Source: Eledone cirrhosa
Taxonomy: Eukaryota
Length of the DNA: 64,000 nucleotides
Direction of reading: 5' to 3'
Assembly: GCA_964016885.1 (NCBI GenBank)
Contig: OZ024747.1
Span: 77,004,001 to 77,068,000, forward strand
Shown piece after piece: positions 1,893 to 54,640 of the stretch (its first letter is position 1; every line of letters begins with the position of its first letter). A program made the position numbers and the translations under genes. The notes under the pieces were generated by a model. It was not told the DNA's origin. It did no database searches and saw only the letters and a list, made by a program, of their open reading frames with translations.

Positions 1893-2050
1893 AAATGGCT
1901 TCTACAGGACTAGAACTGTAATGATTTCTTTTGAATGAAAAGGTTCTAGTCCTGTAGAATCCATTTATGTATTAAACTTGATGTTTACACTCTAGTAATG
2001 TATTGAGTACATTATTAACTGTGTTTTCCCCCGATTGAACCCGGGACTCA
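1893..2050 (+). mobile_element. PLE pLTR-like remnant (family P2) with inverted 5' end, ending at (CA)n
   Basis: Homologous to 8141-8278 and 35341-35527. 24-bp inverted repeat 1893-1916/1943-1966 (1 mismatch). Hammerhead-like tgatttct..gaatgaaa core. Confidence 0.6.
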
Positions 2051-2462
2051 CACACACACACACATGTATATATATATATATATATATGTGTGTGTGTGTG
2101 TGTGTGTGTGTGTGTGTGTGTGTGTGTGTGTGTGTCTTTGTGTGTAAATGTGAGATCTCCTATAAGTACCCAGTAGTCAACTTCACCTTTATGTTGTATT
2201 GTTTGGTATTTTATTCTTTGAAATACCAAAACCGACGGAACCTCTTCTACTGCCAGACGGCAGCATCGATTTTGAATTTTACCAATACCATAACGTCTAC
2301 TCAACAGGGAGATATCACACTTGAAATATCGATCGGAAAAAATTCGCTTCGTTCAACTTTACGTGAAGAATAGGACATATTGTAATTCAATCATATTAGA
2401 ATTAGAATTAGAATTTTCTAAAATGAAATATTAAAATATTTTCTGCAAAACATACACAATCT

Positions 2463-2930
2463 TATATATATATATATATATATATATATATATATATATA
2501 TATATATATATATATATATATATATATATATATATATATATATATATATATATATGCATATATATATATATGTATATATATATATATATGTGTATATATT
2601 TTTATATATATATATGTATATATATGTATATATATATATATATATACATATATATGTATATATATACATGTATGTATATATATATATATGTATGTATGTA
2701 TATTTATATATATGTATACATATGTATACATATGTATGTATATTTATAACTATGTATACATATATATACATACATATATATACGTGCATATATACATATA
2801 TACGTATATATTACAAACACACACACACACACACACACACACACACACACACACGTATATGTATAAATATATATATATATATGTACATGCATAAAATTAT
2901 ATATATATGTCTGTATGTGTGCATGTGTTT
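2463..2930. repeat. (TA)n/(TACA)n/(CA)n compound microsatellite
   Basis: Direct inspection; representative of dozens of similar arrays in the window. Confidence 0.95.
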
Positions 2931-3439
2931 GTGTTCGTCCGTATGTGTGAATAAATAGATACAGTAAAATTAATCAAAAGGCCGCTTATATCATTGAAAT
3001 AAATGTCAGAAGAACTATTAAGATATAGAATGCTTATTTTGTCATCTAAAGCTCTGTAAGAGACAAATGTTTAACATTTTGGCAGATTAAAATAGGATGT
3101 TATTTATAGTTTTCTATCGATTTCTTTCCTAAAATATACGTTCATATATTCCCTACGGTATTATACCAGAGGCCACGCCTATTTCACATCTTTGGATCTA
3201 TAAATCTATGTAATCGTTTTGTTTTACCAATATTACAATATTGTCTATATATTTTTTTCAAGCTGGAAGAGATGGGAACTTGTCAACAACAGCTGTACTG
3301 GCAGCACCAAAAATAGCAGCCATAGAAGTAATAACTCTTCTCAACACAACATCCGAGGAGGGGCCTCTTCCCTATTCTGAATTTCCCGACATAATGAAGG
3401 AGATATAAATGAGACAAACTGTCGCTGAAAAGGAGAGGA

Positions 3440-3895
3440 GAAAAAAGATTATCATGCTGGGAGTATCTTTCAAGGAGTTCCTTCGCAACTCTCATGATCT
3501 TATCTGTCTCATGCAGACAGACTTGTGCAGGAGATGGGCCCCAACGCTTCGAGATTCGTAAATGTTGTCGGGGGGATATGATTCGACATTCAAATGCTGT
3601 CTGGACGGATGTTAGCCTGCTGCCTCCCTGCCTACGTTTCAAGTAAAGGCGCTCTAAGTCACTGTTGATATGGAAGTTTCCGGTGTTGTTTAGTGTTTTT
3701 CAGGGTTTAACATCAATAGTTCGGATTTTGTCTATCACCCAATCGAGTATTCCAAACGTTGGTGTTAGGACAGGTACAGCAAACACATTGGGAGCAACTG
3801 TTTTATTGTGCGCAGAGATTTCAGATGACCATATTTTTCTTAATCGGGTGTAATATTCCCTGGTTACGAGTTTCTTGTCACAGATACCGTCATGC
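3440..3895 (-). pseudogene. R4/Dong-like non-LTR retrotransposon fragment, post-RT region
   Basis: EYYTRLRKIWSSEISAHNK..NVFAVPVLTPTFGILDW, frameshift, then FHINSDLERLYLKRRQGGSRL; typical of R4-clade thumb/linker sequence. Confidence 0.8.
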
Positions 3896-3914
3896 ATGTG
3901 TGTATATATGTATG

Positions 3915-4176
3915 TCATCTTCGCAGTCATAAAGTGAGACCAGTGGTTGACTACCAGACTGCTGTCGGAGATGCTACTCATCATACCTGTCAAGCATGTG
4001 GTAGAGAGTGTAGATCAGCAGGAGGGCTCAAATGACATGCAAAAGTACTTGAAGACCAACCACAGCCAGTTATTGCCAGTGAATGTTTGTATCATGGTTG
4101 CCAATCATGGTTGCCAATCGCAGCACTGTTAAGATATCGAGCAATGGCCATACTCGATAACGTGGGGACAGTCATC
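3915..4176 (+). mobile_element. RTE-like LINE 3' fragment (C-terminal C2H2 finger plus 3' end)
   Basis: Frame reads ATHHTCQACGRECRSAGGLK*HAK. It ends in gcaatggccatactcgataacg..catcat, which is shared with 6531-6572. Confidence 0.6.
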
Positions 4177-51107: not shown

Positions 51108-51641
51108 TACTAGAGCTAAATAAATAAATAAATAAATAAATGTATCATTGATACGTTCATTCAACGGATGTCCAACTATCTATTTCCTCTCTCTATATAT
51201 ATCTCTATCTGTTTCTTTACATGAAGTTCTTCTCTTTATCTATCTTTCCATCTCTCTATTTTGTTGCATGCATTTCTTCTTTTTCTTCTTTTTCTTCGTT
51301 TTCTTTCTTTCTTTTCTTTCTTTCCTTCTTTCTCTCTTTCTTTCTTTCTGTTTACAATTTTTCACTGCCAAATCAACTTTTTCAAATACAAGTCGATGTT
51401 GAACGGTATGTCAAATCTATTTATCTATAAAACTGTCTATATTGTATTTTGTCTGAGGAAGGCATAACATATTGTTAATATGATATCCCTGAAATATATA
51501 TAATGAAATAAATATGGTTTTATAAATATAGTTTCCATTTATTTAATATCGTAAATATACTCCAAATACTTGTTGAGTGCTTTTATATCAGTTATAAATA
51601 TTTACTAGTTGTAACCCAACAATTTAAATATAACTTTCCAT
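51108..51641 (+). repeat. 3' pLTR
   Basis: Direct repeat of 47331-47863. Confidence 0.95.
51439..51515 (+). ncRNA. Minimal type I hammerhead ribozyme in 3' pLTR
   Basis: Identical to 47661-47737. Confidence 0.8.
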
Positions 51642-52034
51642 ATATATATATATATATATATATATATATATATATATATATATATATATATATATATACA
51701 CAAACATGAAGTACAAGTCAACAGGTTATAATTAACGTTTATTCATAATCGCTGGAGAGAGAGAGAGAGAGGGAGAGAGAGAGAAGAAGAAGAAGAAGAA
51801 GAAGAAGAAGAAGAAGAAGAAGAAGAAGAAGAAGAAGAAGAAGAAGAAGAAGAAGAAGAAGAAGAAGAAGAAGAAGAAGAAGAAGAAGAAGAAGAAGAAG
51901 AAAAGAACATGCCCATGCATGAACAACGACAACAAAAACAACGACGACATGCCTGCGAGAGATCCTCTACGTGGCGTCTCATTGTCCGGGAAATAGCAGC
52001 TAAATCTCACTTCAATCACGCATACCTTGTATGT

Positions 52035-52550
52035 ATGTAAGAAACACCTTTCCAGAAATAACTTCTGGAGAGAAGAGGATATGTGTGATGTCCGAACGAG
52101 TATCCGCCAACTCCAATACACTTACCCTCCGCCTCTGGGCCCCGGCTGACGCGATGGAGAATACCTTGCCCCGGAGGACACGGGGAGAGAGACAAACTGG
52201 ATCAGCCACTCCAGGTCGCGGGGCTCGCACTTGCGGGCAACCAAATCCACTCCGATACCCTTGAGTAGGGATGTAGTTCGGGTGACAAGAACATCCTGTA
52301 TGAGGAAAACGCAAATACTGCAGTTCTTCATACACCAAATGGTTATTGATGGAATAAATTTGCAAATAGGATTGCTCGACCTTTGGCTAAACAACGACGC
52401 AATACCAGAGGTATATCATGTATAGCAGATAACGAGTGGAGGCCCAAGAACAGAAGTATATATTTAGAGAATGGTGTGAGCTGCAATAGGCGTAGTTCCA
52501 ACTGTAAGCGAAACCATTCATAATTCTATAGGTATTGCATAGTTCTAGCT
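52035..52550. mobile_element. Unclassified LINE-like relic(s)
   Basis: GC-rich 52090-52290 resembles an RTE ORF start (MENTLPRR..GSATPG). Minus-strand NTYRIMNG / KFIPSITIW weakly resemble a CR1/L2 C-terminus. Confidence 0.3.
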
Positions 52551-53285
52551 GTGTGCGTATGTATACATATATATGTATATGTAAGTAGGTATATATATAT
52601 ATATATATATATATATATTTATATATATATATATATAATTTCAACCGGAAATTCAGTCTTCGGATTTCTCTTTCATGTAACCATTAGATGCGTGTATACA
52701 TACATGCCTATATATATATATATATATATATATATATATATATATATATATATATATACATACATACACAAATATGTACATACTAACGTATATATTTGCA
52801 TTCTTCGATACATATGCGCAGACATTTAGTCATAATGGCATGCATACAATGATACGAATAGTCCTTGTTGCTATTATATATATATACATACAAGCATATA
52901 TATGTATATATATATATGTATATATCACCGCATTAATGAGGATGTAGATTTATACATGTATATACCTTTCAACGGAAACATATATACTTTCATACTTGTA
53001 ACTATATACCTATATACGTACGCATTTAAATGTGTATTTACGACATTCGTTATCTCTCTCTCTCTCTCTCTCTATATATATATATATATATATATATATA
53101 TATATATATATATATATATATATATTTAATACATTAACAGAGAAAGCTTTAAGCAATACTCCGACCGGCTTCCGTCTCACTCAACAAACATTACGATATA
53201 CCTTAGTATAATCCCAATTATACGTTTGGTGTGCTAACTATACGTATTTTGCGGATAGCCAGTTGCATTATTTTATATTAGACAA

Positions 53286-53458
53286 GGGCGGTGGATTGGC
53301 AGTATCGGTAGAGGGTCGGACGCCATGCTTTCCAGCATAGTTACGTCCCTTTGCGGTCTGAGTTCAAATCCCGCCGAGGTTAACTTTGCCTTTCATCCTT
53401 ACGGGGTCGATAAATACTGGGTATTTGATGGCCTTGTGCCAAAAGTAGAAACAATTAT
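53286..53458 (+). mobile_element. Family A SINE with 18-bp TSD
   Basis: TSD attattttatattagaca at 53267-53284 and 53454-53471. Confidence 0.95.
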
Positions 53459-54230
53459 TTTATATTAGACATAATTAAAATACATATATACACACACACA
53501 CATATATATATATATATATATATATATATATATATCATATTATCTACGAACAGAATGGAAAATACATAGAAATTAAAAGGATTATGGTTTTCACTCTGGT
53601 GGTATTATATTTCTTATAATTGAACACATGCTTCTTTGCGTATTTTGCTCTATATGGTGTATTATAAAGAGCCCACTATCTATTCCTTGAGCTCATTAAA
53701 TTATAGGGGTTTAATGTGAGTCTTTAACTCCGTTTTTTTTAATTTGATATATATATATATATATATATACACACACACACATATATATCTATATATATAT
53801 GTGTGTGTGTGTGTGTGTGTGTGTGTGTGTGTGTGTGTGTGTGTGTGTGTGTCTGTGTGTGTGTCTGTGTGTGTCTCTGTATATATGTACGTATGTAAGT
53901 ATGTATGTATGTATGTATGTACTACGTATTTACGTATGTATGTATGTATAGTATATATGAATGTATGTATAGTATATTTGGCAATATACGTTATGTTTAA
54001 TTTAAAACATTTAGAAGACCATACACTATCAGTTTTAAAGTAGTGACTATGTCACTTACTTCTGTTCGGCGAAAGAAGGGAGAGAAGCTGACAGTCTGTT
54101 TCATGCTGGTTGGCGTTCATCAGAGCCACGTACTCCCCTGCTTTCGCCGAAAGAATTCGAGTAATAATCAGAAGCTGATTATACAGAGCGATATATATGT
54201 ATATATGTATATATATATATATATATATAT

Positions 54231-54640
54231 GGAATAAGTAGATGTCTGCTTGACTGGGACTTTATTTTATCGACCCTGTAAGGTCTGAGGTCAAGGATGA
54301 CCTCGACAAAATTAGATCTGAGAACATAAAGAGCTGGAACAAAGCCACGCGCCTTCATATATATATATATATATGTATATATATATATATATATATATAT
54401 ATATATATATATATATATATATATATATATATATATATATATATATATATATATATGTATGTATATATATACATATATATACATATATATATATACATAC
54501 ATATATATATATATATATATATATATATATATATATATATATATATATATATATATATATATATATATATATATATATATATATATGTAACATATATATA
54601 TATAAATAAAGTCCCAGTCAAGCAGACATCTACTTATTCC
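54231..54640. repeat. Perfect 37-bp inverted repeat enclosing a SINE fragment and (TA)n
   Basis: 54231-54267 is the reverse complement of 54604-54640. Confidence 0.9.

Follow-up and report, generated by a model that had tools for sequence, protein, structure and literature searches.

Features of the window

The window is the whole 64,000-nucleotide stretch of Eledone cirrhosa DNA analysed here. Microsatellites were masked for repeat calls (unmasked self-BLAST was swamped by them) and the arms were aligned; on this basis, all seven inverted repeats listed in the original prediction were recovered:

1893–1966, inverted repeat (E 1e-5)
7616–7713, inverted repeat (95.9%)
7797–7940, inverted repeat
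33039–33270/33586–33819, inverted repeat arms (99.1%)
35421–35522, inverted repeat
39044–39317, inverted repeat (100%)
47073–47110/51699–51736, inverted repeat arms

Six of the seven are head-to-head arms of multicopy Penelope-like element (PLE) families. The insertions and neighbouring features are as follows:

1893–2044, plus strand, insertion of family B with a short inverted arm (1893–~1920) and a tail-bearing arm that reaches a microsatellite
7537–7716, minus strand, two-armed insertion of family C within (TA)n, with its tail-bearing arm at 7666–7537 and its short arm at 7663–7716
7795–8102, plus strand, two-armed insertion of family G with its short arm at 7795–~7900
8140–8278, plus strand, family B single-arm copy; hammerhead motif 8150–8188
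33036–33893, plus strand, two-armed insertion of family E that contains (TG)n; hammerheads 33737–33782 (plus) and 33121–33076 (minus)
35341–35527, minus strand, family B two-armed insertion; hammerhead 35469–35431
38993–39452, plus strand, family A2 two-armed insertion; perfect palindrome whose centre is the element's own ATCCGGAT
45119–45624, 506-bp palindrome; a 3′ part that we take to be SINE-like plus about 125 bp of near-unique flank
47076–47111, plus strand, local inverted copy (35–36 bp) of the family F fragment 51698–51733
47330–51641, plus strand, A1, an autonomous-type Hydra-like PLE; hammerheads 47675 and 51453
51698–51754, minus strand, older fragment of a family F pLTR, 5′-truncated and with its end at the internal site
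54231–54640, diverged SINE-like fragment (54231–54356), long (TA)n and perfect inverted copy to 54640

A pattern scan placed type I hammerhead motifs at 8150, 33737, 39264, 47675 and 51453 on the plus strand and at 33121, 35469, 39097 and 32524 on the minus strand, and found none within the repeats at 1.9, 7.6 and 7.8 kb, each of them decayed or truncated. The proposed link of all the repeats to hammerhead-bearing pLTRs stands as regards PLE origin and the presence of hammerhead pLTRs, but does not extend to the motif in these three; TA targeting was supported, except that the left end of the 1893 hairpin lies outside any microsatellite. PLE insertions as a genuine genomic source of hairpins were supported. 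Pattern scanning of reference copies of families C, G, F and H gave no hammerhead, in a scan that also missed the known motif of A2, and Rfam returned only sub-threshold miRNA-like matches on hairpins and repeats (among 150 of 388 rows).

The short arm stops 76 nt before the family 3′ end in the family C insertion, 75 nt before it in the family B insertion at 35341–35527 and 84 nt before it in the A2 insertion; the junction is symmetric in the first and near-symmetric in the second, and that of A2 recurs at other loci. In the family B insertion at 1893–2044, the hammerhead core is decayed and the short arm is a subset of the other arm. In the family G insertion, 64 nt are private to the short arm and the tail-bearing arm carries a 163-nt tail. 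The family E insertion consists of a short arm at 33036–33470 (minus strand, 60-nt 'centre' included), about 58 nt of which is absent from the other arm, and a tail-bearing arm at 33472–33893; the central 60 bp and the (TG)n are parts of the same element as the arms. The sequence of about 236 bp at this locus, previously read as re-copied host flank, turned out to be the element's own hammerhead pLTR and is multicopy (1307 candidates; 94–100% identity among the 40 scored). Arms with private sequence on both sides ('both-private') were thus found in two of the six element cases in the window (7.8 and 33 kb), and symmetric or subset arms in four. The putative PLE pLTR families C and G, present here as non-coding pieces, share the TA target and two fixed ends.

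The pLTRs of A1 (47330–47861 and 51109–51641) form a partial tandem with type I hammerhead motifs by pattern scan. Its ORF (47911–50129) encodes RT followed by a GIY-YIG EN, with a C-run frameshift near 49480; the A1-type ORF is unbroken, at 737 aa, in the copies L224 and L241. The ORF carries RT motifs plus IIY..YVG, as in single-ORF EN+ PLEs, and has 268 homologues, mostly of about 700 aa, whereas a Pfam scan of both halves of the split ORF assigned no family. According to PMC8557442, Hydra clade elements have an RWK-like motif, DKT, CxCX5C, CxxC and CxH, no CCHH within GIY-YIG, and a (TA)n target. A1 has RWR 37, DKT 118, CNCRDRSKC, CDLC and CKH, with no CCHH within GIY-YIG, and judged by its sequence it agrees with that clade in both motifs and target. 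In the window, A1 lacks an arm of inverted element sequence and directly adjoins TA on its 5′ side.

Inverted copies of flanking DNA

The span holds two more inverted duplications, at 45119–45624 and 54231/54640, neither of which has a pLTR or a hammerhead. The former, missing from the list of the original prediction, also has no TA anchor; the inverted copy of the latter measures 32 bp by BLAST and about 36 bp by alignment. The 35-bp sequence mirrored at 47 and 51 kb is a piece of another PLE-like family with 14 exact 31-mer matches genome-wide, and the RAD run X5 matched only other family F copies. Since the variant with adjoining CACA is confined to the 47 and 51 kb sites, the mirror is a local copy. 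The claimed flank copy is real, but the template, probably the family F fragment at 51698–51754, is an older PLE fragment. Apparent 'host flank' beside TA tracts calls for caution in this genome, as it often belongs to an arm of an older PLE. No empty allele was seen among the sequences compared; contig X1, from another organism, tracks the left flank to about 47053 and stops before the mirror.

The idea that PLEs drive the re-copying of host flank was not supported by comparison with controls, as such mirrors occurred at 0–1 of 225 PLE units versus 3–4 of 328 element-free TA tracts. The latter frequency (~1%) compares with 2 of 3000 random flank pairings, and one locus, L328, holds a mirror of an entire earlier insertion plus flank. 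The mirrors at 47/51, 54 and 45 kb are likely to reflect a separate process, in which DNA ends fold back during repair, for the most part where a TA tract can pair with itself; the PLE between the 47 and 51 kb arms was probably a later arrival in the central TA tract.

For the 47/51 kb site only, it is possible, though we think it the less likely course, that A1 cDNA, once 4.3 kb long, annealed anew to its own strand at the TA tract and copied 35 bp of 3′ flank before left-end joining. The mirror is indeed a local copy of the 3′-side flank, this A1 copy ends at TA in place of the usual inverted arm, and R2 cDNA ends occasionally copy nearby target DNA, according to PMC11371274. Against this, the frequency of flank mirrors at other PLE units is not above the ~1% expected for landing in pre-mirrored TA tracts, and the left TA tract, with its ~110 units and interruptions, does not mirror the 29-unit tract on the right. 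Two other routes were considered and set aside. Acquisition of the 35 bp by 3′ transduction from a master A1 was not supported, because none of 29 other A1 3′ flanks, including that of a 99% sister copy, carries it. Snapping back of the 5′-side target end to copy host flank at PLE insertion (candidates L276, L077 and L141) was not enriched, with 5′ junction palindromes in 2 of 95, a set made impure by B-like pieces inside E and some mis-split pairs, versus 8 of 373 and 54 of 5000 in controls. The arms of L276 and L077 are themselves repeats.

Arm structure of two-armed insertions across the genome

Of 118 two-armed insertions (genomic loci), 104 have a short arm that terminates at a fixed internal site, located 60–165 nt short of the distal end depending on the family, giving an inverted 5′-truncated copy with a one-sided tail; an identical end in both arms was found in only 5 of 134 units. 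Most copies have TA at both outer ends. A1 arms end at −82 despite many nearby TA runs, including a longer one at −139. Solo copies end at either site; the internal one terminates 14 of 79 single-arm copies and so behaves as a start site. The arms overlap by at least 2 nt at 52 of the 104 junctions.

The 104 fixed-site pairs comprised 43 symmetric, 33 both-private (10–2569 nt) and 28 subset pairs, with a class bias, since most loci were chosen by similarity to window queries, and with some remaining error in the classes, the chaining script having misassigned the window's own 33 kb locus, which a separate analysis and inspection by eye had assigned correctly. Copies not selected by query gave 13 symmetric, 10 both-private and 2 subset pairs (n = 25), and a random sample gave 7, 5 and 0 (n = 12), both sets being small; the random background consisted of 80 stretches of 10 kb. 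Family B was examined from copies within other loci, as the genome search skips common words. At L260, arms of families E and A2 are joined head to head, forming a pair from two families, the only one found automatically. By eye, L145 and L221 resemble it. None of 47 within-family pairs had arms from different source copies, in families too uniform for a strong test.

Under fold-back, the sequence of one arm should in every case be contained in the other. Given that 33 of 104 fixed-site pairs are both-private, as are 10 of the 12 asymmetric pairs in the set chosen without a query, the single self-fold-back mechanism suggested for all cases is not supported. Self-priming has been put forward for palindromic PLE junctions (PMC3846280), and cDNA snap-back has been seen for R2 (PMC11371274). 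A modified version, in which self-priming or fold-back yields a long palindrome at insertion that asymmetric deletions of its centre later turn into a both-private pair, is unlikely: it would require deletions of up to 2.5 kb, and the both-private pairs show no sign of greater age (median arm identity 97.0%, versus 96.4% for symmetric pairs). It also leaves unexplained the stop at one fixed site, which is a 3′ end in solo copies too, and it cannot produce cross-family pairs. A total of 71 of 104 pairs fit fold-back; these are the 43 symmetric and 28 subset pairs, which fold-back explains too.

Perfect palindromes are a familiar shape of chimera artefacts, and the 39 kb palindrome has that shape, while the junction-confirming contigs, with zero differences, may derive from the assembly's own animal; nevertheless, an origin of the palindromes as long-read or amplification fold-back chimeras is highly improbable, given the per-family fixed ends over dozens of loci, the substitutions distinguishing arms, and the Logan contigs of public runs spanning 46780–47105 and, at the 45 kb palindrome, the outer end on either side.

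Proposed two-ended priming and comparison with known systems

Considering these results, we propose the following scenario. The element palindromes probably arise when both cut target ends prime cDNA on element RNA and the cDNA ends are joined by microhomology. The six element palindromes in the window are PLE insertions in microsatellite-rich, mostly (TA)n, sites, with arms ending at two fixed points. Both strands may be cut within (TA)n, and priming may use 2–5 nt TA matches at two RT start sites, with two RNA molecules used or one re-read; end joining might prefer short native palindromes, which would give perfect hairpins. With less assurance, we lean towards polar two-ended integration as the default of Hydra-clade PLEs, with the distal start at one end and the internal start at the other. 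A dimeric RNP would cut both (TA)n strands, and two cDNAs that overlap, and that in some cases stem from different RNAs, would result without the usual second-strand step at the 5′ end. If true, this would account jointly for the inverted pLTR and the one-sided tail, whose origin PMC8557442 names as an open question; the published guess is self-priming. Private sequence in both arms is a simple discriminating test; it favours two-ended priming, which can be checked in the PAc in vitro system. A search of titles and abstract openings outside the subscription literature found no proposal of two-ended priming for PLEs.

The cited papers are compared here as far as their excerpted text extends. 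Local foldback inverted insertions at double-strand breaks (PMC11724301) join a short inverted break-adjacent copy to the other end, as at 47/51 and 54 kb, though that system is a yeast HO break and the fold-back point here is mostly a TA tract. PLE self-priming (PMC3846280) and R2 snap-back (PMC11371274), the latter occasionally copying target DNA, are in essence the mechanism of the original prediction; unlike the insertions described here, both-private or cross-family pairs would be impossible under these models. In L1 twin priming (PMC11702581), priming on RNA also takes place from the second end of the target, with the cDNAs joined by MMEJ and two-RNA insertions occurring rarely, which resembles two-ended priming. 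L1 arms abut with an overlap of just 1–10 bp, whereas the PLE arms here have as much as kilobases in common, begin at a fixed site and are the common product; only L243 looks non-overlapping.

The Poseidon-clade PLE PAc (PMC11167929) cleaves and extends both strands in vitro, and two RT start sites bound its tail; with its predicted dimer, it resembles the proposed model in each of these features. It belongs to another clade, and its start is not homologous to the target, whereas the element ends in the window have TA matches; the excerpted text offers no model of inverted arms. Close in layout are the Hydra clade C-terminal EN+ PLEs of PMC8557442, in which inverted copies and a one-sided 'tail' were already known and the origin of the inverted structures was left open. 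They share RT followed by GIY-YIG, RWR/DKT, the CxCX5C linker, no internal CCHH, hammerheads, (TA)n targets, an inverted 5′-truncated copy and a one-sided tail with the present elements, and differ in tail length, which is 30–40 nt in that clade versus 60–165 nt here.

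Inverted repeats and Penelope-like elements of the window

All seven inverted repeats of the original prediction were recovered in the window (C7:77004001-77068000 of the 3.0-Gb genome) by self-BLAST after masking and alignment of the arms, with tandem repeat masking covering about 46% of the window. A pattern scan gave nine type I hammerhead motifs, two of them within what had been predicted to be host flank at 33 kb. The inverted-repeat features are genuine and belong to a type already known. The coding and hammerhead-bearing features were as follows.

47330-51641, Penelope-like element (PLE) of family A1, layout pLTR-ORF-pLTR (pLTR, terminal repeat), with RT and GIY-YIG domains
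9678-10796 (-), 373-aa frame that weakly matches zf-RVT (E 8.5e-6), a LINE 3' remnant
18327-20216, 629-aa open frame, long, proline-rich and low-complexity, inside a 21/42-nt tandem array
32480-32524 (-), additional hammerhead-bearing family with an end near 32440, outside the predicted cases

The element at 47330-51641 carries the Hydra-clade marks listed in section 11 of PMC8557442, and the closest named homologues of the window PLE protein are from Argonauta. Its ORF is frameshifted in a C run, and an intact 737-aa ORF is present in two other copies. On a small contig (L217), one inverted A1 block is repeated three times in tandem, reflecting either a later duplication or an assembly error.

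Arm ends and private sequence in two-armed units

The 236 bp regarded as re-copied host flank at 33 kb proved to be element DNA, as 33590-33893 is multicopy (1307 genome candidates, 40 of them scored, identity 94-100%). Thirty loci were read, and in most of them (TG)n and a 60-nt stretch precede its homologues; at 33 kb these 60 nt are what had been called an insert. Because the "flank" is multicopy and mostly lies behind (TG)n and these 60 nt, the 33 kb structure is a single two-armed family E insertion. About 58 nt of upstream sequence in its left arm are missing from the right arm, which in turn carries a 67-nt tail missing from the left. Family E is microsatellite-rich, the 1.8 kb examined (L030:1-1801) showed no ORF, and a captured family B 3' end lies within E upstream of E's own hammerhead (e.g. 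L030).

In seven families, the short arm of such head-to-head units stops at a family-specific point adjoining TA.

Approximate short-arm stop, counted from the distal end of the element
A1: -82
A2: -84
B: -75
C: -76
E: -67
F: -92
G: -164

The 134 two-armed units classified, among which the script put the row for the 33 kb locus of the window in the wrong class, comprised 53 symmetric (symmetric junction), 42 both-private (each arm with element sequence that the other lacks), 34 subset (one arm contained in the other) and five equal-ended units. Exclusion of six window rows, five rows of two tandem-duplicated loci and the equal-ended units left 118, and 104 of these had a fixed-site short arm (43 symmetric, 33 both-private, 28 subset). 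The corresponding counts were 13, 10 and 2 in the 25 units not query-selected, and 7, 5 and 0 in the 12 units from an evenly spaced 800 kb sample. Among 79 solo copies, 14 terminate 3' at the internal site, which is therefore a start point.

In family C (L155-L181), truncation and joining cluster in 25 of 30 copies to within about 15 nt of a single point that lies 141 nt from the 3' end, which would fit an RNA with a defined 5' end or a defined RT stop. Visual inspection of family G (L141, L143, L149) shows a hammerhead, uncalled by the pattern scan, whose core is CCGAUGA and whose stem II spans about 90 nt.

A single cDNA fold-back, originally proposed for all cases, fails for the 33 both-private fixed-site pairs, which need two primings because a self-folding cDNA recopies only sequence already made. 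Fold-back is compatible with the other 71 of the 104 pairs, as is two-ended priming, and fits equally well the perfect hairpins whose centre is a short palindrome of the element itself (e.g. 39 kb), at which two cDNA ends could also anneal to give such hairpins. Two source copies were found in the arms of 0 of 47 within-family pairs, which counts against the two-ended reading, as do the 71 pairs that suit both models and the misplaced 33 kb row. At L260, an E arm is joined head to head with an A2 arm, both 3' ends lie in TA, and no E remainder was found directly past the A2 end. Both-private pairs are not older than symmetric pairs. Frangieh et al. (PMC11167929) showed for a PLE protein that both strands are cut and extended, with synthesis beginning at two sites, one on each side of the tail. 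Fold-back alone is thus not enough for these insertions, and the value of the present analysis lies in a quantified private-sequence test that favours priming from both ends, with two fixed start sites.

At L276:3861-4123, a tail-less B arm abuts a perfect 55-bp mirror of a repeat across (TA)33, which is either a cross-family pair or a target-end snap-back.

The mirror at 47/51 kb

The 35 bp mirrored here, also predicted to be host flank, are family F sequence, with 14 exact 31-mer matches genome-wide, and several F copies show by eye a hammerhead-like core upstream. Since the 35-bp variant with adjacent CACA is confined to these two places in the genome, one arm was copied from the other; the right arm (51 kb), which reaches further into F than the left, is probably the original. 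A public-run contig, from an animal that may be the same as the assembly's, spans the left junction with zero differences.

Mirrors around the whole PLE unit scored in 4 of 228 cases (the 47/51 kb locus, two pieces lying inside E, and L076, by eye two copies of a common repeat), versus 4 of 328 TA tracts without an element inside, one of which consists of two diverged members of a common family. Control frequencies were 2/628 for other blocks and 2/3000 for random pairings. At L328, a whole earlier insertion and its flank are mirrored. With the 33 kb flank being element, PLE-driven copying of host flank is not borne out. As element-free TA tracts carry mirrors and whole-unit PLE mirrors are rare, a mirror predating the landing of A1 in its central TA tract is sufficient to explain the 47/51 kb locus. 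A switch coupled to the insertion itself is a possible but less likely origin of this mirror.

PLE-free mirrors and published precedents

Neither a pLTR nor a hammerhead was found at two further mirrors.

45119-45624, duplication of a SINE-like end and about 125 bp, the latter matching elsewhere at 73-82% only
54231/54640, part of an old SINE-like fragment mirrored across (TA)n

Both outer junctions of 45119-45624 occur in public-run contigs. Its arms differ at eight positions in the SINE-like part versus one in the unique part, possibly through conversion or polishing toward other copies.

An inverted 5'-truncated PLE copy, a one-sided tail and TA preference are already described in PMC8557442, which does not settle on a mechanism, and self-priming was proposed earlier (PMC3846280). 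For R2, snap-back has been documented both onto cDNA and onto target DNA nearby (PMC11371274), and L1 twin priming yields abutting arms (PMC11702581). The mirrors at 45 and 54 kb resemble the foldback insertions at yeast break sites, as outlined in PMC11724301.
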